Below, one piece after another: positions 2,546 to 55,513 of a DNA stretch of 59,214 bases. The notes beneath the pieces are model-generated. The model was not told where the DNA came from. It was given only the letters and a program-made list of their open reading frames with translations, and searched no databases. Each line of letters opens with the position of its first letter. Position 1 is the first letter of the stretch. Source of the stretch: Chiloscyllium plagiosum (taxonomy: Eukaryota); the NCBI RefSeq assembly GCF_004010195.1, contig NC_057758.1, positions 5,968,150-6,027,363 of the forward strand, given 5' to 3'. The position numbers were made by a program, and so were the translations under genes.

Positions 2546-3241
2546 CAAAAGTGATGAGCTGGAGAAGTGTGACGTCCATAAAGATAAAGGGCACTCGAGA
2601 GGGGAGAAGACATTACGACGAGGGAAAAATTGACAATTGAAACCTAAGTGCAATCGTTCCCTAATGGATTGTGGAATCTAGGCAAGTTTCATTTGATTGC
2701 TTCGTAAAGTTCTTTCGTGGTTGAATTTCAATCTTGTCTGTTGACTTTGAATGGATGTTTTTGCCAAGGAAAGGCAATTCGTTTTTCAAAGTTTACAGCA
2801 CAGGAAAAGACTCTTCAGCCTTCCAAGTCCGCTCTAATCCAGATATTCTGTCTCAACTTGTGAGCCGCTGGTTTGAACTCAGCCGGAGGTTTGTTGTGGA
2901 AAACTGGTTCGCACATTACAGGGAGAGCATCAGTGCTCTAGAGAATGTCCAGAAGAGATGCATACGAATTGAACTTGAATCTGTACGGGTAACTCTGGAA
3001 ACTGTAACAATACACATCAGGTCCTGTCATGTTGAGCCAGAATAGGCGACTTTATCTTTCGACCAGCACAGAGCTTTTGAGCTGAAAGTTCTCTCTGCTT
3101 GTGCCGTTACTTTACTGTGGTCCAATAGTTCTCTTCTCCTTGTCACTCGGTTAAATGGCAATGGGAATATTGTACAGCGTTCTGAGGTCCATGTATATCA
3201 GTGATAGCAGGCATCAGGGTTGGTCTGTCTCGACCGTTGCT

Positions 3242-4172
3242 TCAATAATGTCTCCCTTTCTGTTGGCAAGGTGGATTCTCCTCTTGTGCATTTGTCGGAG
3301 GAGTGTGCAGAGCGAATTGCTGCGATCCAGGAGAAGTATACATCGTTGTGTATTGCCCTGAAGGGTTACGCTGCTGTAAGAAGAAATAATTGAGACATTG
3401 GGAATGGTCCCATGTTTGCGACTCTTCTGAGCCTCCAACTGATACTTACTGTATTCCTGTTGCTCAGGCTCAGCTCCACTGAGTTAATTTCATCACCCCT
3501 GAAACATTACCTTCTGACTCGTGGCAATAAAACTTATAGCATTGATTGCAACCCCTTGTTCGTTACTCATTTTTCATTGTGATTTGTGTGTTTGCTCATA
3601 TTGACAGAAAGAGAGGGGGAGTTAAGAAAAGGCAAGAGAATACTGACATCTTATAGCTCCAATACAGTCAGCATTAGAGAATCATTGCTTACCAACAAGT
3701 CCCAGCTTCGATCAGGAGCAGTGCACATTCTATCCTTGCCCCACTAGAAGGATACAAACTCCAGAGTTGGTGGTGCAGTCGTGTCCACGGTGCGAAGTGA
3801 ATGACCCTGGTGACCCTGGATGTACTCACTGTTGATTCCTAACACTACGATATCTCAATACGTACGTCCTGACCTGAAAATGGAGGACTGATGCTGATTT
3901 TCCACCGTGTACCCTCCCTCAGCCAAACAAGCCGACCTCCTGTGAATTGAACATCACACAGAGGATGCTCTGACGGGAGGGTACGGCACAGGTCGGAATC
4001 TGATTTGCTCAAACGTAAATGGCGAACCACATCTAACAGTGGGATTCAGATTAAAAAAAAAACTGATCAGAGAAAGGTTCCACCAATACCCGACCCTGAA
4101 AGTTGTGGGAGTCCATCTGTCATTTTGAGTAACAACACTGAAGAGACTTTCAATTACCCCTCGTGCGTACAT
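3242..4172 (-). CDS. Candidate 4-exon small gene of unknown function (~100 aa); exons 4172-4095, 3873-3830, 3498-3450, 3373-3242
   Basis: All introns are GT-AG (donors GTCGGG, GTGAGT, GTAAGT; acceptors cattttcag, tgtttcag, ttcttcttacag). Phases 0/2/0 give one open frame: MYARGVIESLFSVVTQNDRWTPTTFRVRTYVLRYRSVRNQQGDEINSVELSLSNRNTQRNPSGQYTTMYTSPGSQQFALHTPPTNAQEENPPCQQKGRHY*. The first exon is the least certain. No family recognised. Confidence 0.45.
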
Positions 4173-7299: not shown

Positions 7300-7530
7300 T
7301 GCACTCTCAGATCAGTGCTGTCAGAGCTCTGTAATGTCAGAGTGTCAGTTGAGAGGGATTACCAGGCTGATGAACAGTAACTGCTGCGGTAACTACACAC
7401 AATTGGAGGGTTAGCGCTGATGGGTTCCTGCAGTACTGGAGGGTCTGTGCTCAGGAAGCTTCGCACAATCAGGGAATCAGTGCTGAGGGAGTGGGGTGTG
7501 CCGGATTGCGAGCTCAGAGACGGCTGTCCA
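7300..7530. repeat. Degenerate ~33-bp tandem repeat (approximately gcactgtcggagggtcagtgctgagggag)
   Basis: Recurring variants: tcagatcagtgctg, tcagagtgtcagttgagaggg, ggagggttagcgctgatggg, ggagggtctgtgctcagg, gggaatcagtgctgagggag. Confidence 0.55.
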
Positions 7531-7580
7531 CTATTGAAACGTCAGAATAAAACGTTGAGACCAGTTAGAAATTAAGTGAT

Positions 7581-7586
7581 TTTAAT
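7581..7586 (-). terminator. Putative polyadenylation signal (ATTAAA) of the beta-defensin gene
   Basis: tttaat on the + strand, about 115 nt downstream of the defensin stop codon. Confidence 0.4.
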
Positions 7587-7701
7587 TAACACAATTCGCA
7601 ATGAATGTCATGTTATGAAGACTGACACTATCTGTCAATAGTTGGAGCTGTTGTGGGAGTGGTGACGTCGCAGTCGACAGTGACAACTCCCCAGTCTTTC
7701 A

Positions 7702-7820
7702 TCATCTGACCACGCAACATTTATAAAACCAGAAACATTTATTAGGGACGATGTACTCATTTCCCCGACAAGGCCCCTGTCTACAGCTCCCAGGAATTCT
7801 GTCGCATCCAAAGATCGCCC
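7702..7820 (-). CDS. defb: Beta-defensin-like gene, coding exon 2 (mature six-cysteine domain)
   Basis: Acceptor ttgctttcctttcag|GG. Encodes (G)AIFGCDRIPGSCRQGPCRGNEYIVPNKCFWFYKCCVVR*, with C-X6-C-X4-C-X10-C-X5-CC spacing, GxC before Cys2 and a Glu after Cys3, matching the beta-defensin signature. Confidence 0.9.
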
Positions 7821-7864
7821 CTGAAAGGAAAGCAATTTCAGAGTATAAGTAGACAGACATTATG

Positions 7865-8130
7865 CACGGTGCTTCAAGTGTGTTCGGGAAAAGGGAAGTA
7901 TGACAGGAAGTGTGCACTGTTCTCCCAGTGTGGTCTGAGCAGGGGAGATAGAGATCGGGCCTGTACGCTATACTCCCAACGTGATCTGATAGGGAAGGTC
8001 GAGTCATGGTATGTACACTGTACTTCACTGTGGTCTATTATCGACAACGCAGTCAGGGAATGTACACTGGCATTCTTCTGTAATCGGAACAGGAGAGGTG
8101 GAGCCAGGGACTGAGCTCTGTGCTCTGCTT
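7865..8130 (-). repeat. ~50-bp degenerate minisatellite within the defensin intron
   Basis: tgtgcactg, tgtacgcta, tgtacactg, tgtacactg and tgagctctg fall at about 7911, 7962, 8012, 8061 and 8112 (period ~50). Confidence 0.65.
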
Positions 8131-8343
8131 TTGGCATAACCAATGAACAACAAAAACTTAGGTGTACGTAGAAAGTTGAAGATAAAGGAAAATCATTCCT
8201 CGGTAACTGAAACCAATGTACAAAAGTGAGAATTCTTTTTTAGTAAATTTAGTAGCAACCTTAAACTGAGAGTCTTCGTTAAGGGTCAAACCTCTTTGAG
8301 AACTACGTTAAGTAAGTCGATTCAAACTGGGGGACATCTTTGT

Positions 8344-8590
8344 GGGCGGCACGATTGGCAAAGTGCCAGAGACCTGGGTTCAATTCCAGCCTCCGGCGAC
8401 TGACTGTGTGGAGATTGCACATTCTCCCCGTGACTGCGTGGGAGTTTCCTCCGACAGTCCAAAAATGTGCAGGTTAGATGAATAGGCCATGCTAAATTTG
8501 CCCGTAGTGTTAGGTCAAGGGATAAATGTAGGGGGAATGGGTCTGGATGGGTGGCGCTTCGGCGGGTCGAAGCCTGTAAGTAATCTAATC
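8344..8590 (+). mobile_element. HE1-type SINE with internal deletions, within the defensin intron
   Basis: gggcggcacga...gagacctgggttcaattcc...gtaagtaatctaatc, matching 2229-2545. Confidence 0.85.
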
Positions 8591-8680
8591 TCTGATTCAC
8601 CTGAATGACGTTTCAGGTCCGTCAATTCATCCCGTCTGTCGGAGTGGCTCGTCAGATTGGAGACGGAAAAGCTCACTTAC

Positions 8681-8774
8681 CCCCATAGAGAAAGCGTCCT
8701 CTTAATCCACATGCAGACTCGATGGGATGTTCCAGCACCAGAAACACAAGCAACAAGAGCCGTGCTCTCCACAT
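8681..8774 (-). CDS. defb: Beta-defensin-like gene, coding exon 1 (signal peptide and N-terminus)
   Basis: ATG at 8774. Encodes MWRARLLLLVFLVLEHPIESACGLRGRFLYG plus one G, then a consensus donor G|GTAAGT. The 94-nt length gives phase 1, which joins in frame to 7820-7702. Confidence 0.85.
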
Positions 8775-8821
8775 CTTCAGCTGATCCCCTTGGAGGGATA
8801 CTGAGATGGTCAGAGTTTCCA

Positions 8822-8827
8822 TTTATA
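8822..8827 (-). promoter_or_regulatory. TATA box of the beta-defensin gene
   Basis: TATAAA on the minus strand (cttataaatgg), about 48 nt upstream of the ATG. Confidence 0.7.
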
Positions 8828-8884
8828 AGAACACGCAGTACCTCCAGTTAATGAATACACGTGCTTGGCAATACTGTATCAAGC

Positions 8885-9100
8885 AGAAAGTTAGGACTGC
8901 AGATGCTGGAGATCAGAGACGAAGACTGTGGTTCTCGAAAAGAACAGCCATTCAAGCAGCATCTGAGGAGCAGGAAAGTCGCTATTTCGGGCTTATGGCA
9001 TTCATCAGGAATTCCTGCTGTCGGGCTAATGCCCAAAACGTCGCACTTACTTTTCCTCGGATGCGGCCTGACCCACTTACCTTTCCAGCCCTGCACTTTT
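8885..9100. mobile_element. Penelope-associated terminal repeat, two inverted halves centred on caggaattcctg
   Basis: gaaagttaggactgcagatgctggagatcagag...gcagcatctgaggagcagg, then the mirrored half. Degenerate hammerhead boxes on both strands. Confidence 0.65.
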
Positions 9101-9649: not shown

Positions 9650-9880
9650 TCTTTCCTGATGAAGGGCCTTTGCCCGAAACGTCGATTTTGCTGCTCGTCG
9701 GATGCTGCCTGAATTGCTGTGCTCTTCCAGCACCACTGATCCAGAATTCCCATTATTGATATCAAGCGAACAGGTCTGCAATTTGCAAGTTTAGGAGAAA
9801 GTGAAGACTGCAAATCGTCGAGAGTCGAGTCGAGAGTGTGGTGCTGGAATAGCACAGCAGCTCAGGCATAATCCAAGGAG
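9650..9880. mobile_element. Penelope-associated terminal repeat fragments
   Basis: Same repeat family as 8885-9100 and 12655-12780 (ggatgctgcctga..tgctgtgc..ttccagcaccac; gaaagtgaagactgca). Confidence 0.65.
9654..9687 (+). ncRNA. Minimal type I hammerhead ribozyme core (Penelope type)
   Basis: CUGAUGA (9656-9662), stem II GGGC-cuuu-GCCC, GAAAC, then a GUC cleavage triplet (9681-9683). Stem I is only about 2 bp in this copy. Confidence 0.65.
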
Positions 9881-10392
9881 CTGTGTGTGCAGTTTTGGTC
9901 GCCATGCTATAGGAAGGATGTGGAGGCACTGGAACGGGTGCAGAGGAGGTTTACCAGGATGTTGCCTGGTATGGAAGGAAGATCGTATGAGGAACTACTG
10001 AGACACTTGGGGCTGTTTTCATGCGAGAAAAGAAGGTTTAGGGGTGACTTGATTGAGGTGTACAAGATGATTAGGGGGTTAGGTAGGGTTGACAGTGTGA
10101 ACCTTTTCCCGCGTATGGAGTCGGGTATTACAAGGGGGCATAGCTTTAAATTAAGGGGGGGTAGATATAGGACTGAAGTTAGGGGTAGGTTCTTCACTCA
10201 GCGAGTCGTAAGTTCATGGAATGCCCTGCCAGCAGCAGTGGTGGACTCTCCCTCTTTATGGGCATTTAAGCGGGCATTGGATAGGTTTTTGGAGGATAGT
10301 GGGTTAGTATAGGTTAGGTGGGCTTGGATCGGCGCAACATCGAGGGCCAAAGGGCCTGTACCGCGCTGTATTCTTCTATGTTCTATGTTCTA
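9881..10392 (+). mobile_element. Young 5'-truncated CR1/HER1-like LINE (ORF2 C-terminus, 3' UTR and (ttctatg)n tail)
   Basis: Uninterrupted ORF 9887-10312: QFWSPCYRKDVEALERVQRRFTRMLPG...LGLFS.EKRR.RGDLIEVYK...FFTQRVVSSWNALP, followed by the tail repeat. Confidence 0.95.
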
Positions 10393-19244: not shown

Positions 19245-22200
19245 AATAGGTGCAGGAGTAGGAAATATTGCCCTTTGAGCAGCACCACCATTCATTATGA
19301 TCATGGCTGAACATCCTCAATCAGTATCCTGTTCCTGCCTTAACCTCATAACCCTTGATTTCACTATCCTTAAGAGCTCTATCCAACTCTTTATTGAAAG
19401 AATCCAGAGACTTGGCCTCCACAGCCTTCTGGGGCATAACATTCCATACAACCAACATGCTCTTAGTGAAGTCGTTTCTCCTCAACTGCGTTCTAAGTGG
19501 CCTACCCCTTATTGTTAAACTGTCTCGTCTGGTTCTGGACTCACCCATCAGCCGAAACGTGCTTCCTGCCTCCAGAGTGTCCAATCCTTTAATAATCTTA
19601 TTCGTCTCAATCAGATCACCTCTCAGCTTTCTAAACTCAAGCGTATACAAGTCCAGTCGCTGCAATCTTTCAACGAAATGTAGTGCCACCATTCAGAGAA
19701 TTAACCTCGTGAACCTACGCTGCACTTCCTCAATAGCTAGAATGTTGTTCCTTAAATTTGAAGACCAAAACTGCACACAATATTCCAGGTGCGATCTCAC
19801 CAGGGCTCTGTACAGCTGCCGAAGGACCTCTTTGCTTCTATACTCAATTCCACTTGGAATGAAGGCCACCAAGCTATTAGCTTTTTTCACTGCCTGCTGT
19901 ATCTGCATGCTTGCTTTCATTGACTGATGTCTAAGAACACTGAGATCTCGTTGTACTGCCCCTTTACCTAACCTGACTCCATTTAGGTAGTAACCAGCCT
20001 TCCTGTTCTTTCCACCAAAGTGGATAACCACATATTTATCTGCCATGCATCCGTCCACTCACCTCGCCTGTCCAGGTCACCCTGTATTCTACTAACATCC
20101 TCCTCACATTTCACCCTGCCACCCAGCTTTGCGTCATCAACAAATTTGTTAATATTACTTTTGTACCAACATTTATGATTAATGTACATTGTAAGAAGCT
20201 GCGGTCCCAGCAGTGATCCCTGCGGAAACTACTGGTCAGTGCCTGCCATTCTGAGAGGGAGCCATTTATCACTAGTCTTTGTTTCCAGTCAGCCAAACAA
20301 TTTTCAATCCATGTCAGTATTTTGCCTCTCATACCATGTGCCCTACATTTGCTAACTAAACTCCTATGTGGGACTTTATCAAAGGCTTTCTGAAAGTCCA
20401 GGTATACTACATCCACTAGATCTCCCTTATCCATTTTCTGAGTGACATCCTCAAACAATTCCAGAAGATTAGTCAAGCATGATTTCTCCTTCATAAATCC
20501 ATGTTGACGCTGACCTATCTTGTTACTGCTATCCAGATGTGTCGTAATTTCGTCCTTTATAATTGACTACAGCATTTTTATCACCACTGAGATCAGACTA
20601 ACTTGTCTATAATTCTCTGTTTTCTCTTTCCCTCCTTTCTCAAAATGTGGGACAACATTATCCACCCTCCAATCCGCTCGAACTAATCCTGAATCCATAG
20701 AACATTGGAAAATGATCATCCACGATTTCTAGAGCCACCTCCTTCAGTAGCCTGTGATGCAGATCATCAGGTCCCGGGGACTTATCAGCCTTCAGACCTA
20801 AAAGTCTCTCCAACACAATTTCCTGCGTAATATAAATTCCCTTCAGTTCCTATTCTTCAGCCGCTATTACATCTGGGAGATTGCTCATGTCTTCCCCCGT
20901 CGAGACAGAAAAAAGTACCAATTCAGCTCTTCTGCCATTTCTTTGTTCCCCGTAATAAATTCAACCACTTCTGTCTTCAAGCGCCCAATTTTAGTCTTTA
21001 GCATTTGTTTTATCTTTTCACATACCTAAAAAAGCCTTAACTATCCTACTTTATATTTTTGGCCAGTTTACCTACGTACCTTATTTTTTCTTGGCGTATT
21101 TCCTTTTTATTTAGCCTCTGTTGTTCTTTAAAAGCTTCCCAGTCCTCTGATTTCCCACTCATCTTTGCTATGTTATACATTTTCCCGTTCGTCTTTTTAT
21201 GGTTATAAAATTCCCTCGTCAGTCATGGCCACCCCGCCTCCCCTTCGGATCTTACTTCCTTTTTGGAACGAACTGATCCTGCATCTTCTGCATTATACCC
21301 AGAAATACCTGCCATTGTTATTCCACTGCCATCACTGCTAGGGTATTGCACCATTGAACTTTGGCCAGTTCCTACCTCATAGCTCCATCTTTCCCCTTAT
21401 TCAACTGTTGTATTGTCACTTCCGATTCTATCCTCTCCCTTTCAAACTGCAGATTAAAGTTTATGGTATTGTGGTCACTACCTCCTAATGGCTCCTTTCC
21501 TTCGAGGTCCCTGATCAAATCCGATACGTTGCACAACATCAGATCCAGAGTTGCTTTCTCCCTGGTAGGCTCCAGCACAAGCTGTTCTAAGAATCCATCT
21601 CGGAGGCACCCCACAAACTCCCTTTCTTGGGGTCCAGTACAATCTTGATTCTCTGCATGATGAAATCCCACATAACAACTGTAGTAATATCTTTGAGACA
21701 GGCCACTTTCAGCTCCTTATTCAACTTACACACTACATCCAGGCTACTGTTTGGGGGCCTGTAGAAAACTCACATTCGGGTCCTTCTACCCTGAGAATTT
21801 CTCAGCTCTATCCATACTGACTGTACATCGTTTGATTCGAGGTCCCCCCACGCAACGGACTGAGTATCAATCCATATCAACCGGGCCACCCCACCCCCTC
21901 TGCCAGTCAGTCTGTCCTTACGATAGGACGTATAGCCTTGAATATTTATTTCCCAAGCCCTGACCACTTGAAGCCACATCTCAGTTAACCCACAACATTA
22001 TAACTGCCAATTTCCAAATGAGCCTAAAGCTCATCCACCTTATTTCTAATATTTCGTGCATTCATATATAATATGTTTAATTTGTTACTCCCCTCACCCT
22101 TCCTATCAATCCCCATTTCACTTGAACTTGCGGCATGATGCTTTTTTGAGTTTTCTGCTCCATTGATTCCGTTGTCTTTCTTGACATCTCTTGTTCTAAC

Positions 22201-25699: not shown

Positions 25700-28600
25700 T
25701 AGGCTACAAGATTCTAAAAGAGCTTTGTGAGCAGGCAGAAGTCGTGATGTTCGTTGGCATCAGGGACAAAGCTCGGAAATGGGATGAGGATCTAAAAGTT
25801 GATTTGGCAAGTTAGGTTGGAAGCTAAATAAGAGGACGAGTAGAATAGTTATCTCAGGATAACTACCGGTGACACGTGCTATTAAGGCGAGGAACAGGAA
25901 GCGAGTGTAAATACACACATGATTACAGCGCTGGTGCAGGAGGGAGGGCTTGAGTTACGTTGTTCATTGGGGTGCCTTCTGTAAAAGGTGACGCCTGAAC
26001 ACGAATGACGGGTTGCCCTTGAACGGAAGGGTAAACAATATCCTGGGCAAGATGTTTGCTGCAGCACTTCGTGTGAGTTTAAATTAGTTTATCAGGGGGA
26101 TGGTATTGGAGCTACATATCACAGGAGAGGATACTTGTTCAACGGGCAGGAATAGAATGCAGAAAGTCTGTCAGGAAGAATGCAGAATTGATAAGACAAA
26201 GAGCTGGATTATAGTGAGTATGTTTCAATGCAATGTGTGTCGGGAATAACAGTAAGGCATTTAGAGCATGGATCAAGACTTGGAAATACGATGTTGTGGC
26301 CATAACAGAACCTTCGATTTCACAGGGCAAGAATGGTTGCTGGATGCTCCAGGGTTTAGATATTTTAAAAAGAACAGGGAGGGGTGTAAAAGAGATAGAG
26401 GAGTAGCATTAATAATTAGAGTGTGCATCACAGCTGCAGAAAAGTAGTTTGTTGAGGAGATATAGTTGAAAGATTCGCATTGGTGGAGGTGTGTTACAGC
26501 AAAAGAGCAGTCACTTTATAAAGTATTATCTACAGATTTCCAAAAGCAGAAGTGCGACAGAAGTACAGATTGGACCGCAGGTCTTGGGAAGGTGCAGATG
26601 TAACAGTTATTGTTATGGCAATTCAACTTCTCAAATTTTCATTGGAATCTCCTTAATGAAGATGATCGAGATGGAGTCAATTTTGTCAAGTGCGTCCAGG
26701 AAGGAATCTTGACTCAATCTGTAGGTCGACCAAGTGGAGGGAAGCCATATTGGATTTGGTTCTCAACAACGAGCCAGGTCAGGTCTCAGGTCTCCCGTTG
26801 GGAACGCATTTAATGTGACAGTGACCAAAACTGCCTCACCTCTACCATAGCCATGGAGAGAGCAACGAGCAGACAGTATGGAATGTCATTTAATTGTAGT
26901 AAGGGAAACTTATACTCCGGTTAGACAGACGCTGTGGAGTAGAAATTAGGATTAAGTATTCTACGGGAAATGCACAACAGAAATGTGGAGGCAGTTTAAG
27001 GAACACTTGTGAGTGTAGAACAAATTTTCCCACTGTGACGGGCAAGGAATTGAAAGATGTAGGAGCCTTGGTCAAGAGGATGGAGGAGCTTACTTAATGT
27101 TGAGGAACATAGCTCTGACAAAGCTTTAGCGTTTCATAAGGTACCTCGCAATTAACTCAGAAATGGACAGAGGAGATCTCGGAGGAGGCAGAAAAAAGTC
27201 TTGCAACGAAGGTTAGGGCAAACCAAAGGCATTCTAAAATTAGGTGAGGAAAAAGAGAATGATCAGAGATAATGTAGGGCTGATCAGGAACAATAGAGAG
27301 AACTTGTGCCTGGGATATCATGTTAAGCGGAAATAGAAGGCTTATGTGAAGTTGAGACGAGGAGACACAATCGCAGCGTTTCAGAGTTACAAGATAGCCA
27401 GCAAGGACCTAAAGAGAGAGCTCAGAAGAGCAAGGAGAGCACATCAGATGTCTTTGTAGGGTAGAATCAAGGGAACCCTTGAAGCTTTCTATAGGTATGT
27501 CAGGAATAAAATAATGACTAGAATAAGTTGAAGACCAGTCATGGGCACGAGTGGAAAGTTTTATGTGGCAAAGCGCTAAATGAATATTCTTTTGTCAGTA
27601 TTCACATTGGAAAAGGACAACGTTGCAGAGGAGCACACTGAGGTACAGAGTATTATAATAGGCAGGATTGAGGTTCACAAGGAGGAGATGTTAGCAATTC
27701 TGGAAACTGTGAAAATAGATACATCTCGGGGGGAAATCGGATTCATCATCAGATTCTCTGGGAAGCTTGGGAGGAGGTTGTAGATTCTTTGGCTTGGACC
27801 TTGATGTTGTAACTGTCTACGGGAATGGTGTTGGAAGATTGGAGGACAGCAAATGTTGCCTCCTCTTTCAATAAGAGGAGTAGGGAAAATCTGGTAATTA
27901 CACACCAGTGTGTCTTATATGAGATGTGAGTAATGATTTGGAAAGAATGTGAATTATTATCATCTAGAAATGAATAATTTGTGTAGGGATGGTCAACACG
28001 GTTTTGTGAAGAGTAGGTTCGTGCTTCACATGTCTTATTATGTTCTTTGAGAAGATGAAGAAACAGGTCGATGAGAGTAAATTGTTTGAGCGGGCGTATA
28101 TGGAATTCAGTAAAGTGTTTGATAACTTTATACACAGCAGGCTACTGGAGAAACAAACAGGTCTGAGGGTGAGTTCGCGGTTTGGATCAAAAATTGGCGA
28201 GCTGAAAGAAGACAGAGGATGATGTTTGATGGGAAATATTCGTCTGGTCATCTGTCCCTCGTGGTGTACCGTACATATCTGTTTTGGGTGCACGACCGTT
28301 TGTCATTTTTGCAAAGTGACCTGTATGAGTAGTTAGAAGGGTGGTTTAATAAGCTTGCAGATGAAACTGATGTCGGTAGATTTGTGGATATTGCTGAAGC
28401 ATTCTGCAGGATATATCGCGACATGGATAAGTAGCCGAGTTGGGCTGAGAGGTGACAAATTGAGTTGAGCTCAGAAAATTGTGAGTTGATTCACTTTGTA
28501 ATGATTAACAGGAATGAGGAGTACTGGGATAACGGTACAATTCTTGGAAGTGTGGATATGCAGATAGATCTCGGTGTCCATGTGTATAGATTCCTGAAAC

Positions 28601-29070
28601 TTGCCACCGCGGTTGGTAGGGGTGTGAAGAAGACAAACGGTGAATTAGCTTTAATTGGTAGGGGGATTCAGTTTCGGAGATATGAGGTAATGTTGCATCT
28701 GTACAAAACTCTGGTGCAGCCGCACTTGGAGTATTGCTTAAAGTTCTGGTCACCACATTACAGGAAGGAAGTGGAAGCGTTGGAAAGGGTGCAGAGGGAA
28801 TTTACCAGGGTGTTGCTTGGTCTGGAGAGAAGGTCCAGTGAAAAAAGGTTGAGCGACGTTTAGGCTGTTTTCGTTTGGAATGAACAAGCTTGAGAGATGA
28901 CATAATAGAGACGTATAATATGATCAGAGTAGTAGGTAGGGTTCACAGTGAGAGCCTTCTTCCGCAGATGGTAATGTGTAGCATGAGGAAACATAGCTTT
29001 AAATCAACGGGAGATGGAAATGGAAATAGATGTACGAGGTATTTTTTTTAAACTCCGAGAGTTGTAATGG
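25700..29070 (+). mobile_element. CR1/HER1-like LINE remnants (probably two adjacent copies joined near 27315)
   Basis: Endonuclease motifs (CFNA..V.NNS..LRAWI..WKYDVVAITE) and RT motifs (YMEFSKVFDN, LYKTLVQPHLEYCLKFWSPHYRKEVEALERVQREFTR). The segment 27080-27310 recurs in diverged form at about 27320-27570. Confidence 0.9.
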
Positions 29071-30034: not shown

Positions 30035-31310
30035 GAACTGATTGATGTTATAAGTGTGGATATGCTGGAAATTCTGGGAAGCATCAAGATAGATAAATCC
30101 CTAGGACCGGACGAGATATATCCAAGGTTACTGTGGGAAGCCAGGAATGAGAATGCTGCTGTACTGGCGATAATACTTGTATTTTCACTCTCCACTGGAT
30201 CTGTGCTGGATAACTGGAGATGTGAATGTTGTTCTTCTTTTCAAGAAAGGGTATAGGAAAATCCCTGGGAATTACGGAACAGTCTGTGGTGAGCAACTTA
30301 CTGGCAAGGATTCCCAGAAATAGGATTTATGGCTATTTGGAAAAAAACACAGTTTGACGACAGACATTAAACATGACTTTGTTAGGAGCAGGCCATACCT
30401 CACAATCCTTATTGATTTCTCTGAGGAGATCATGAGACAAGTGGAAAAAGGCCGAGGGGGCGATGTGGTGTATTTCAGTAAGGCATTTGATAAGGTTTCC
30501 CACATTCGGCTCATTCAGGAAGTTAGGAGGTATAGGATGTCGGGAAATGTAGCTGTCTGGATACATAATTGGATGGCTGAACGAAGAGAGCGAGTGGTCG
30601 TGAATGGGAAGTATTCCGCAGGGATCTGTTCGTTGGCCTCTGCTCTTTGTCTCTTATACAAAATACTTGGATGGGGAAGTGGAAGTTTGAGTTAGTAAGT
30701 TCGCCGGTGACGCAAAGTTGGGTGGTGTTGCAGATAGTGTTTAAGTCTTTTGCAGGCTTAAACGAGTCATTGCTAGGATGCAAAGCTCGGCTGAGAAGTG
30801 GCATATGGAGTTCAACCTGGATAAATTCGATGCGATGCATGTGGAAGGTAGAATTGGAATGACGAATACAGGGTTAAAGACTGGGTTCTTGACACAGTGG
30901 AGGTACATACGGATCTTGGGGCCAAAGTACACAGATCCTCAAACTTGTCACTCAGTTTGATCAGATCTTTAAGAAGGCTTTTTTTTTGGCTTTCATGAAC
31001 AGAGAGAATTGAGTTTCCGAGCATCGAGGTTTAGCTGCAGCTCTATAAAAGCTTGAAAACACCACAATTAGAATATTGTGTTCTGTTCTGGTCACCTCAT
31101 CATAGTAAGGATGTATATGCTTCCGAAAGAGTGCAGAGGAGATTTTCCGGGATGCAGCCTGAATTGGAGGCCTTGTCTCATGAATAAAGTTTGAGTGAGC
31201 TAGGGATTTTCACAGAGGAGATAAAAGGAAGAGAGGTTGCTTTAAAGAGATGCACAAGGTAATGAGAGCAGAGAAAGCCAGAAACTTTTCCCCACGGCGG
31301 AAGTGGCTGA
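30035..31310 (+). mobile_element. CR1-like LINE RT region
   Basis: 'IKIDKSLGPDEIYPRLLWEAR', 'YFSKAFDKVSH', 'AEKWHMEFNLDK'. Confidence 0.9.
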
Positions 31311-35999: not shown

Positions 36000-36499
36000 N
36001 NNNNNNNNNNNNNNNNNNNNNNNNNNNNNNNNNNNNNNNNNNNNNNNNNNNNNNNNNNNNNNNNNNNNNNNNNNNNNNNNNNNNNNNNNNNNNNNNNNNN
36101 NNNNNNNNNNNNNNNNNNNNNNNNNNNNNNNNNNNNNNNNNNNNNNNNNNNNNNNNNNNNNNNNNNNNNNNNNNNNNNNNNNNNNNNNNNNNNNNNNNNN
36201 NNNNNNNNNNNNNNNNNNNNNNNNNNNNNNNNNNNNNNNNNNNNNNNNNNNNNNNNNNNNNNNNNNNNNNNNNNNNNNNNNNNNNNNNNNNNNNNNNNNN
36301 NNNNNNNNNNNNNNNNNNNNNNNNNNNNNNNNNNNNNNNNNNNNNNNNNNNNNNNNNNNNNNNNNNNNNNNNNNNNNNNNNNNNNNNNNNNNNNNNNNNN
36401 NNNNNNNNNNNNNNNNNNNNNNNNNNNNNNNNNNNNNNNNNNNNNNNNNNNNNNNNNNNNNNNNNNNNNNNNNNNNNNNNNNNNNNNNNNNNNNNNNNN
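36000..36499. other. Assembly gap (N run)
   Basis: Seen directly. Confidence 1.
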
Positions 36500-37896
36500 T
36501 TCCTTCCTTCCTGCTGGTGGAAAATGAATGCACCTGTTGTTTTTCGTTGTGTCTCGCAACTGCACATGCAAAACCTGGGTGCTGGGGAAGAACTGAAATA
36601 AAAAATAAATTCAAAACCGATCATTCCTCACTTTGTACATCAGTCACTCCAGCCCAGGAATCTGCTTTGTAAGCCTTCGTTGCACTTTCTCACTTAAGGA
36701 GGCCAAAACTGGAGCAATATATTAACTAACATTGCTTTATATTCTATTATATCATGTTATATTATGAAATATTATGTTGTACCATATCAAGGTAAGTTTC
36801 CCACATTGCGATTTCCTTCATTGAACAGCACAATGCATCAGTGGTTCGCATTCCCGTCTCACAGCACCAGGGCTGAGGCTCTATTCCACAACTGCATGCT
36901 GGCTGTGCAGAGTTTGTACTTTCACCTCATCTCTGTTGGATTTCCTCTGATTTATCCAGTTGTCTCGCACATTCCAAAGATGTCGCAGTTTAGTTAAATT
37001 AGACTTGGTGAATCAAGGCTAAAAGGGGGAGGATGAGAATTTCATCTGGTCTTGAAGCTCTTTAGGGGGTCGACATGAATTCGATGGTTCTATATCATAA
37101 TATCTTTATATTCACAGTCTTTTACTGGTCATGTATTGACGGCATCAATCAGGTCACCTCTTCACCTTCTCAATTCCAGAAAATACAGGTCTCCTCAAAA
37201 GGTAACACACGAAGTCATCATTCATGTAAACCCATATTTTACTTGATCCAAGGCAAATTAAATCTTTGTAAGATCTGTTTCTCAGATCTGCTCACAGGAG
37301 AGAAATGGGGTGTAAACAGAGTGTTGTCAAATCGTAGCACAGCTTCTATGCCGTCATGCTCCTTTCCCTCAAGTTGAACACAATATTCTTTCAACAGCCT
37401 TGAACATTTTCTGCAAAATGTCGACTTCCAATCATGTTTACTTCCCTTCACTCCTTTCCACAATCTGTGGTATCGATCTCCTACCCGTGCTGAGCAAGCG
37501 AGTGACTGCTCCATTTGTAAAATATCAGATGGATTATTTGATAGTGGGAACAAACAAAACGTGCCAAGCTTTCTCCAGAGGCCAGGCTTAAGTTCTTGAA
37601 GGATATAGATTGGAATGGCATTGAGGCAGATGGAGTAGTTTGAACAGAGTAACATTCTGGAAGGAGTTGTTGGCGCATGGAGATCAACTGACGATCAATG
37701 TGGAAATCTTCAAAGATTCTCCGAATACCTGTGAATACATATATCTGTTACCATGTGACTCCAACCGACAACGTTGTGGTAACTACCCACCTGCACTGTC
37801 TCCACAAGTGATGCCTGACCCACGGCACTGTGGGTGCTACTGACCTGCTGTGGACTTATTTGCGAATCCACACCCATTTTACAATGGACTGCTCTT

Positions 37897-38472
37897 NNNN
37901 NNNNNNNNNNNNNNNNNNNNNNNNNNNNNNNNNNNNNNNNNNNNNNNNNNNNNNNNNNNNNNNNNNNNNNNNNNNNNNNNNNNNNNNNNNNNNNNNNNNN
38001 NNNNNNNNNNNNNNNNNNNNNNNNNNNNNNNNNNNNNNNNNNNNNNNNNNNNNNNNNNNNNNNNNNNNNNNNNNNNNNNNNNNNNNNNNNNNNNNNNNNN
38101 NNNNNNNNNNNNNNNNNNNNNNNNNNNNNNNNNNNNNNNNNNNNNNNNNNNNNNNNNNNNNNNNNNNNNNNNNNNNNNNNNNNNNNNNNNNNNNNNNNNN
38201 NNNNNNNNNNNNNNNNNNNNNNNNNNNNNNNNNNNNNNNNNNNNNNNNNNNNNNNNNNNNNNNNNNNNNNNNNNNNNNNNNNNNNNNNNNNNNNNNNNNN
38301 NNNNNNNNNNNNNNNNNNNNNNNNNNNNNNNNNNNNNNNNNNNNNNNNNNNNNNNNNNNNNNNNNNNNNNNNNNNNNNNNNNNNNNNNNNNNNNNNNNNN
38401 NNNNNNNNNNNNNNNNNNNNNNNNNNNNNNNNNNNNNNNNNNNNNNNNNNNNNNNNNNNNNNNNNNNNNNNN
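37897..38472. other. Assembly gap (N run)
   Basis: Seen directly. Confidence 1.
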
Positions 38473-52921: not shown

Positions 52922-53074
52922 TCATATAATAAAACAGCAGATGGCATTGAAGGAATAACTCCTCCTGTGGATAATCTCATTTGCATGACAGCCGTCTTCT
53001 GTGGGCAATCTCATGCACAAGACAGCCTTCTTCTCTGCAGATCCTTTCATCATCCTCACATTCCAATACATTAA
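52922..53074 (-). pseudogene. defb: Beta-defensin paralogue, exon 2, disrupted by a 34-nt internal duplication and a Cys4-to-Tyr change
   Basis: Acceptor cttcctttccgttctcag, phase 1. Removing one copy of the duplication (53034-53001 versus 53000-52967) leaves 119 nt, the same length as 7820-7702. It then reads NVLECEDDERICREDGCHANEIIHRRSYSFNAICCFII* (C-X6-C-X4-C-X10-Y-X5-CC). Confidence 0.8.
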
Positions 53075-54275: not shown

Positions 54276-54867
54276 CTGCGGTGTAAAATTGATGGAAATT
54301 ATCCCCCAAATGCAACATGTTAGAGGGAAATACAAGTGAAGTAAGAATCGAACTGTGGCTGATAGGCGTTTTTGGCTATTTTATTGAAAACTATTGGAAG
54401 GTGCAGCCAGAGGAAGGCGTGTAAGCTTGTCAGAAGATAACACTTAAAAGGCATTTGAATGAGTATATGAATAAGAACGCTTTTGAAGGCTGAGGGACAA
54501 ACAAAATGTGATATTGCTGGTGAACCCTGCAGATCTGGCACCATCTGTGAAAACAAAGCAGTTAATATTTTACTTCGCCATTCACAGTGAAACCCTCCCT
54601 CCACCTTCAAGGCCCGGTAGAAGCAATACATCCCAACTACAAAACGCATTGCATACCTGCTCCAAAGATCCTCAGACAGCATCTTCCAAAACTATGAACA
54701 TTTGAATGTGGAAGGACAAGTGGAACACCACCTCCTGCACGTCCCCTTCCAAGGCACTCACTATCCTGACTTGAAAATATTTCGCTGCTGTTTCATGTTT
54801 GCTTGGTTAAAATCTTGGATATTCTTTTGTAATGGCACGATGGAACTGACGTGCAAAACATGGAACA

Positions 54868-55513
54868 NNNNNNNNNNNNNNNNNNNNNNNNNNNNNNNNN
54901 NNNNNNNNNNNNNNNNNNNNNNNNNNNNNNNNNNNNNNNNNNNNNNNNNNNNNNNNNNNNNNNNNNNNNNNNNNNNNNNNNNNNNNNNNNNNNNNNNNNN
55001 NNNNNNNNNNNNNNNNNNNNNNNNNNNNNNNNNNNNNNNNNNNNNNNNNNNNNNNNNNNNNNNNNNNNNNNNNNNNNNNNNNNNNNNNNNNNNNNNNNNN
55101 NNNNNNNNNNNNNNNNNNNNNNNNNNNNNNNNNNNNNNNNNNNNNNNNNNNNNNNNNNNNNNNNNNNNNNNNNNNNNNNNNNNNNNNNNNNNNNNNNNNN
55201 NNNNNNNNNNNNNNNNNNNNNNNNNNNNNNNNNNNNNNNNNNNNNNNNNNNNNNNNNNNNNNNNNNNNNNNNNNNNNNNNNNNNNNNNNNNNNNNNNNNN
55301 NNNNNNNNNNNNNNNNNNNNNNNNNNNNNNNNNNNNNNNNNNNNNNNNNNNNNNNNNNNNNNNNNNNNNNNNNNNNNNNNNNNNNNNNNNNNNNNNNNNN
55401 NNNNNNNNNNNNNNNNNNNNNNNNNNNNNNNNNNNNNNNNNNNNNNNNNNNNNNNNNNNNNNNNNNNNNNNNNNNNNNNNNNNNNNNNNNNNNNNNNNNN
55501 NNNNNNNNNNNNN
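54868..55513. other. Assembly gap (N run)
   Basis: Seen directly. Confidence 1.

Follow-up and report, generated by a model that had tools for sequence, protein, structure and literature searches.

A probable beta-defensin gene in the shark Chiloscyllium plagiosum and the large set of six-cysteine exons to which it belongs

A short two-exon reading frame in the DNA of the shark Chiloscyllium plagiosum raises the question of whether a cartilaginous fish carries a working beta-defensin gene and, if so, whether this gene stands alone. We have analyzed the frame within a stretch of 59,214 nucleotides, referred to here as the window, and in the rest of the genome. The reading that we favor, with a probability of roughly 60%, is that of a working, recently copied beta-defensin gene for a secreted cationic host-defence peptide. 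Continued expression of this particular copy appears slightly more probable than the reading as a whole, and antimicrobial defence as the main role takes the same share of the total as that reading. One more beta-defensin gene is ordinary; the news is that a shark genome holds 59 or more distinct six-cysteine cores.

The initial annotation had described a minus-strand gene with a TATA box, an ATG, a phase-1 GT-AG intron of 860 nt and a product of 70 amino acids; this model was reproduced base for base (Table 1), and so was the cysteine spacing C-X6-C-X4-C-X10-C-X5-CC (6-4-10-5-0). Exon 1 encodes the leader, a 7-residue spacer and four further residues, and contributes the first base of the codon split by the intron; spliced to exon 2 it gives 213 nt, that is 70 residues plus the stop. 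The predicted splice sites are backed by the same 94-nt exon 1 in distant paralogues, and the acceptor AG lies 14 nt before Cys1 in 61 of the 69 intact cores found in the genome. The TATA box is kept in 19 of the 24 subfamily copies having exon 1, and the window copy alone lacks 5 nt near 8816, just downstream of this box. An upstream in-frame ATG at 8822 was considered as the start and rejected, since it shares bases with the TATA box and, owing to the 5-nt indel, loses the reading frame in the five copies nearest to this one. The SINE-like insert in the intron, which may resemble the shark HE1 SINE, occurs in all six of the youngest copies (L001-L006) and in none of 12 older ones; in L018 the intron is largely deleted. 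In 100 dinucleotide-matched random sequences of window length, read in six frames, the strict spacing pattern was found 0 times against once in the window; a loose version was found three times in the 100 controls against three in the window, one of those being a CA/TG microsatellite.

Table 1. Positions in the window of the features of the gene and of the other defensin-like exons
Feature	Position	Strand	Basis or detail
TATA box TATAAA	8822..8827	-	sequence
Coding exon 1, 94 nt	8681..8774	-	ATG at 8774, then GTAAGT donor
Predicted phase-1 GT-AG intron, 860 nt	7821..8680	-	pyrimidine tract and TTTCAG at 7821; donor and acceptor kept in paralogues
SINE-like insertion, ~250 nt, inside the intron	8344..8595	+	high-copy by genome matches and read depth
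Coding exon 2, six-cysteine beta-defensin-type domain and TGA stop	7702..7820	-	spacing 6-4-10-5-0
Candidate poly(A) signal ATTAAA (variant)	7581..7586	-	sequence only
Second defensin-like exon 2, six-cysteine core and one extra Cys	3271..3389	+	AAG acceptor; AATAAA at 3526
Relic of a third defensin exon 2	52931..53066	-	broken by a 34-nt tandem duplication, 52965-53034

The 70-residue precursor has cysteines at positions 22, 37, 44, 49, 60, 66 and 67, the last six of which form the core. Its leader reaches a hydropathy of 3.77 over the best eight residues, and the exon 2 domain carries Gly-x-Cys2 and, four residues after Cys3, a Glu, both of them hallmarks of beta-defensins. Residue 20 is Ala in 13 and Ser in three of 16 diverse first exons from across the repertoire; acidic residues are frequent at 21-22, and position 27 holds Arg in seven of these exons and Lys or His in four. 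On the strength of this register the signal cut is placed after Ser20, followed by the 7-residue spacer, so that residues 1-20 are the more likely signal peptide; a cut after Cys22, which fits the small-residue rule for signal cleavage sites, appears less likely. Cleavage after Ala-Cys-Gly (Gly23), as originally put forward, is the least likely of the three candidate cuts, with Glu at -3 in 20 of the 24 subfamily copies; the count of eight K/R against two D/E given for that cut is correct. The spacer contains the extra Cys22, present in 23 of the 24 subfamily copies, ends in Arg27 and is likely trimmed at this single Arg. A furin site in the spacer was rejected: furin recognition calls for an Arg at P4, and here there is a single terminal Arg with none at P4. 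Cut after Arg27, the peptide has 43 residues with the six cysteines, 6 K/R and 2 D/E, and a computed net charge of +4; left untrimmed after Ser20 it has 50 residues, a net charge of +6 and a spare cysteine. Depending on the cut site the mature peptide thus spans 43-50 residues, +4 to +6, with a pI of 8.9-9.3. An aromatic patch had also been described; it precedes the last cysteines of the window peptide and is not a fixed feature, with a Gly lying within it in the sister clade.

From these signals the following route can be proposed. Transcription would begin from the TATA box and the one phase-1 intron would be removed; the hydrophobic leader would direct the precursor into the secretory pathway, where it would be cut after Ser20 or, less likely, Cys22. 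Trimming at Arg27 would probably release the 43-residue form, and in the untrimmed form the spare cysteine could link two chains. The six cysteines are predicted, with moderate confidence, to lock a three-stranded beta-sheet; the pairing in beta-defensins is Cys1-5, 2-4 and 3-6. By family likeness, the cationic and partly aromatic surface would bind microbial envelopes at an epithelium, and the peptide may also attract leukocytes as other vertebrate beta-defensins do. For bony-fish beta-defensins, antimicrobial roles and induction are described in the available part of PMC3978493.

We consider it highly probable that the gene belongs to the beta-defensin family. The spacing fits the consensus C-X4-8-C-X3-5-C-X9-13-C-X4-7-CC as given in an excerpt of PMC515299, and a phase-1 intron just 5' of the cysteine region is described, in an excerpt of PMC7203481, as conserved in beta-defensins and big defensins. 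Across 22 aligned family members (29-95% identity) the cysteines, the Arg after Cys2 and the Glu after Cys3 are invariant, and the Gly is kept in at least 90%. The Pfam check that had been suggested gave a divided answer: the window peptide itself has 0 matches at E up to 10, and its paralogues match PF00711 and PF13841. PF13841 is matched by 10 and PF00711 by eight of the 22 aligned members at E up to 1; at E up to 0.1, PF00711 and PF13841 are matched by 11 and seven of 28 members; and L034 reaches 25.6 bits against PF00711 (cut-off 21), the sole one above the cut-off among eight members scored singly. Scanning the genome with PF00711 returned five weak matches, three of them tied to family members. 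Against the PDB the family profile found two sequence matches, both beta-defensins (E 0.041 and 0.41), and the exons of the window used as a single-sequence query found no defensin.

An AlphaFold model of the window peptide has three strands (pLDDT 73.5, pTM 0.44). In Foldseek the top nine rows are beta-defensins, the best at E 0.45 and none at E 0.001 or better, and in the VIA fold search the top six rows are beta-defensins, the best (Z 3.9, rmsd 3.3, 37 aligned) being below significance. The best ESM Atlas cluster is PF00711, with 182 shared features and a score of 0.85, a lead by the tool's own scale; all ten of the best matches fall within one family or clan, and the clusters are those of host-defence beta-defensins. 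Fold and language-model searches point weakly to beta-defensins. Structure prediction, proposed at the outset as a check, yielded a three-stranded model of moderate confidence whose nearest folds, below significance, are beta-defensins, and the beta-defensin call of the initial annotation is supported by paralogue Pfam matches, fold search, language model, consensus spacing and phase-1 intron.

Searching 1.84 billion representative proteins with the profile of the family brought up two matches, the 71-residue chiPu_0020313 of Chiloscyllium punctatum (GCC16467.1; UniRef100_A0A401REA7) and P0001, which was discarded as a low-complexity tandem repeat. Word-indexed protein searches returned two candidates and no match with the 28-member alignment, and only the query itself with the C. 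punctatum protein. That protein has the same spacing and an automatic 'Beta-defensin' label; it is 84.5% identical over 71 residues to L046, in keeping with the elasmobranch-like origin first read from the sequence, and 48% identical to the exon 2 of the window gene over 31 residues. It differs from the window gene in belonging to another subfamily, and its model reads through the intron acceptor, is without the leader exon and looks like a partial annotation. A single shark member, and that a partial model, among 1.84 billion representative proteins supports the earlier remark that genes this short are missed by annotation. In the literature, a search that covered few subscription journals found no description of chondrichthyan defensin genes, and no paper on chiPu_0020313 was found. 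In the available part of a 2019 review on fish immunity (PMC6795676), defensins are missing from the antimicrobial molecules that sharks and skates have yielded, and a table excerpted from a 2025 review gives only Kenojeinin I for cartilaginous fish (PMC12734493); with none listed in one and only Kenojeinin I in the other, the impression that cartilaginous-fish defensins are poorly covered in print holds for these two reviews.

Two further defensin-like exons lie in the window (Table 1). The exon at 3271-3389 stands tail to tail with the gene, 4.3 kb apart, and matches Pfam DEFB136 weakly (E 0.13, below the cut-off). The block of about 9 kb that holds both recurs in L055, L056 and L057 at 91-95% identity. 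This exon is probably a pseudogene, because its candidate leader, near 3082, begins with CTG (ATG in nine paralogues) and has an out-of-phase donor; two other candidate first exons for it, one at 1221-1297 and the other, seen in paralogues, upstream of 2859, were discarded. The relic belongs to the L054 subfamily, and over about 1.5 kb its flanks match L054 at 67-71% identity. Degenerate reverse-transcriptase-like frames are found at 9872-10312, 19321-20566, 28456-28863 and 30324-30695 and are presumably LINE-type retrotransposons. Three runs of N, near 36000-36500, 37900-38450 and 54830-55500 (1722 bases in total), may hide further exons. No long protein-coding gene besides the defensin exons was recognised in the 59-kb window.

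Across the genome, 69 places with an intact six-cysteine core, representing 59 distinct sequences, were identified among 114 fetched loci and the window; these are second exons and not whole genes, and they include nine copies of the dispersed subfamily L075-L083. Chromosome C49 carries 17 of them, C46 eight and C50 five; a further 12 are spread over other numbered chromosomes, and the remaining 27 lie on unplaced contigs. The unplaced contigs may include uncollapsed haplotypes, and many matches lie outside the fetched set, which makes the core count a lower bound. Seven single-protein searches of the genome revealed many further subfamilies, the locus counts from these seeds again being lower bounds. 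On C49 the copies are spread from 1.16 to 8.0 Mb.

Several members of this set have features of their own. L075-L083 (on C7, C8, C23, C32, C38 and unplaced contigs) represent a separate defensin-like exon with the spacing 6-4-10-5-0 and an acceptor 14 nt before Cys1. The unit around it is longer than 2 kb, and its copies, scattered over many large chromosomes, are 87-93% identical to one another. All nine fetched copies have an intact core, and 51 of 78 genome matches are stop-free inside. No first exon for it was found within ~1.5-1.8 kb upstream, where a LINE-like remnant lies; a mobile or repeatedly copied segment may be what carries this defensin exon. At L044 (C46 near 3.86 Mb) two near-identical second exons, at 3544-3657 and 3927-4040 on the plus strand, lie 383 nt apart; with this tandem duplication, either of the two could be chosen as second exon. 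L032, L033, L035 and L036 (C49 near 8.0 Mb and unplaced) form a subfamily in which Cys1 and Cys2 are separated by only four residues and the basic tail is longer, and L032 and L033 have a 91-nt first exon about 2.7 kb upstream. Single defensin-like copies are L060 (C26 near 11.48 Mb), L084 (C16 near 72.35 Mb) and L085 (C37 near 7.28 Mb), the last with a TATA box, a 91-nt first exon and the spacing 7-4-11-5-0.

The lone hidden gene of the original description is one member among many in a birth-and-death family of large size. Searching the genome at the DNA level gave 62 matches, and 27 loci fetched from these hold exon 1 or exon 2 of the subfamily of the window gene, which has at least this many loci. 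Twenty have both exons, eight of them intact and 12 broken, whether through loss of the start or of a cysteine, a stop or a frameshift; the remaining seven are partial, at contig ends or gaps. Three of the six youngest copies are broken. The term 'intact' remains true of the TATA box, start, splice sites, frame and six cysteines of the window copy; with 12 of 20 loci broken, this intactness says less about the copy than appears. The six SINE-bearing copies differ by 2-6% in the intron, the window copy being 0.02 from its nearest relative, and the SINE-free sister clade is about 0.25-0.28 away.

In exon 2 of the six youngest copies three amino-acid changes at 92 sites compare with four silent changes at 22 (Fisher p 0.025) and with 125 changes at 848 intron sites (Fisher p 0.0006). 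This shows purifying selection on exon 2 among these copies, a result that gene conversion or fast-mutating SINE sites could inflate. The corresponding counts are 1/92 for amino-acid changes against 41/629 in the intact sister clade (p 0.02) and 53/92 against 244/574 in five broken older copies, in which there is no deficit of amino-acid changes; for the three intact young copies alone the test is not significant (p 0.15 and 0.08). Between the two clades dN in exon 2 is 0.21-0.25 against about 0.25-0.28 in the intron, with all cysteines kept, which suggests fast change at the non-cysteine positions. In simulations a dead lineage stays intact over the sister-clade distance in 0.8-2.9% per lineage, and a copy as young as the window copy looks intact by chance in 67-74%. 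The low chance survival over the longer distance means that the lineage has been working; the window copy itself may or may not be.

Sequencing runs were compared with positions 7350-8950 of the window at 80% likeness. Both exons are covered in run X1, whose behavior is that of DNA and which contains SINE-bearing as well as SINE-free copies; the subfamily is therefore real in an independent data set. All X1 contigs over 7750 and 7764 carry the letters of the paralogues and none the private letters of the window copy, which are either an allele or an assembly error. Junction reads across 8681/7820, named earlier as a test of splicing, were not seen in the single-cell RNA run X5: within about 2% of this run (one sample, tissue not given) 2135 reads fit, all on repeats and none on either exon. 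Among the contigs that make up run X7, likewise, none falls on the exons.

How do these data divide between the possible readings? That cysteines and splice-like sites have come together by chance in repeat-rich DNA could be argued from the missing Pfam match and RNA support of the window peptide; this reading is already refuted by paralogue conservation, that is by the invariant residues of the 22 aligned members and by exon length and phase that are conserved across subfamilies, and the random controls gave no strict match. Hardly more credible is a toxin with a defensin fold, akin to crotamine or the platypus defensin-like peptides. Crotamine does appear in the profile search (E 0.83) and in the fold search (Z 2.7), where platypus peptides reach Z 2.3; these rows stand below ordinary beta-defensins and are not significant, the Atlas clusters are of host-defence type, and nothing ties the gene to venom tissue.

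A more serious possibility, albeit a doubtful one, is that the sequence is that of a true beta-defensin in a silent or dying duplicate which has no visible lesion yet. The broken majority of two-exon loci, the neutral survival of 67-74% that goes with an intron distance of 0.02, the private 5-nt loss beside the TATA box, two window neighbours that both look dead and the lack of exon reads in X5 would all fit a silent copy. Against it are the undamaged TATA box, start, splice sites, frame and cysteines, and the depletion of amino-acid changes in exon 2 of the young clade, and the RNA test amounts to one sample, of tissue not given, at 2% depth. It is also conceivable, though unlikely, that the peptide is expressed and serves mainly reproduction or signalling, as a sperm or egg-case coat or a receptor ligand, in the manner of mammalian reproductive-tract sets. 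This would accord with the charge diversity of the repertoire, in which 29 of the 69 intact cores are neutral or acidic, with the closeness of exon 2 dN to the intron value between clades, and with the wide expression of beta-defensins in reproductive tract, testis and pituitary reported in parts of PMC6362941 and PMC3978493. The cationic window peptide (+4 to +6, pI ~9) suits direct antimicrobial action instead, no tissue data point toward gonads, and the roles are not exclusive. A working host-defence gene is the reading that we prefer.

Published beta-defensin counts are 14 in chicken and 48 in mouse and human (PMC6362941, in part) and 63 in a lizard (PMC12278569, in part). We see about an even chance that the following holds as a whole: an overlooked shark repertoire at least as large as those of mammals and lizards, of well over 100 copies when broken ones are included, would lie on several of the smallest chromosomes and away from cathepsin B; it would turn over fast by segmental duplication of head-to-head and tail-to-tail blocks, with one exon scattered among many large chromosomes in a mobile or repeatedly copied unit, and would keep a two-exon, mammal-like plan with a short Arg-ended spacer. 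If true, the two-exon gene and the large repertoire are likely the ancestral state of jawed vertebrates, or else an independent expansion; if ancestral, the small three-exon teleost set is the derived case. Dozens of untried candidate antimicrobial peptides would also become available. The ancestral gene structure and repertoire size in jawed vertebrates can now be tested, as can a contribution of defensins to the defence of shark skin and mucosa.

Among known systems, invertebrate big defensins share with the window gene a phase-1 intron and a C-terminal cysteine domain (PMC7203481, in part), and the oyster big-defensin domain is found at Z 3.3 in the fold search. The window gene is unlike them in being without the hydrophobic N-terminal domain, there being 16 residues between Ser20 and Cys1. 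Compared with the cathepsin B-linked cluster of reptiles and other amniotes, the shark arrays are on several small chromosomes, and none was found within the 400 kb around cathepsin B, the single marker gene used. In the lizard the beta-defensin block contains the cathepsin B gene, according to an excerpt of PMC12278569; in the shark the propeptide exons of cathepsin B are located on C9, near 579 kb, and not on C49. No defensin exon was found in C9:280-680 kb (400 kb, of which 33 kb are N), the best score being 8.2 bits against 49-54 for the exons of the window. A Gly-x-Cys-Arg stretch 90 kb from cathepsin B was rejected as a defensin relic, as it sits in an apparent LINE remnant.

Teleosts have only a few beta-defensin genes. 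As described in the available part of PMC3978493, their precursors consist of a signal peptide, a short propeptide and a mature peptide, measure 60-77 residues and have a charge of +1 to +5, and their genes consist of three exons, two of which share the cysteines between them. The window precursor, with 70 residues and +4 after Arg27, is like them in these measures. Its gene is not: it has two coding exons, the second of which encodes all six cysteines, and this upholds the earlier comparison with the mammalian plan and its contrast to the three-exon teleost plan.

The tetrapod beta-defensins are also among the closest known systems; they are represented by PF00711 (Defensin_beta) and PF13841 (Defensin_beta_2) and, among solved structures, by mallard AvBD3 (7lzl), human HBD4 (5ki9) and HBD2 (1fd3) and crocodile CpoBD13 (7t9q). 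The window peptide is too divergent for a Pfam match of its own, its ten residues between Cys3 and Cys4 are such that the two best PDB matches need a one-residue gap there, and its subfamily has the extra Cys22 in the spacer. The two share the consensus spacing, the Gly-x-Cys2 and the Glu after Cys3, the six cysteines in one exon with a phase-1 intron after the leader exon, the cationic mature peptide with a predicted three-stranded sheet, and the clustering of recent duplicates.
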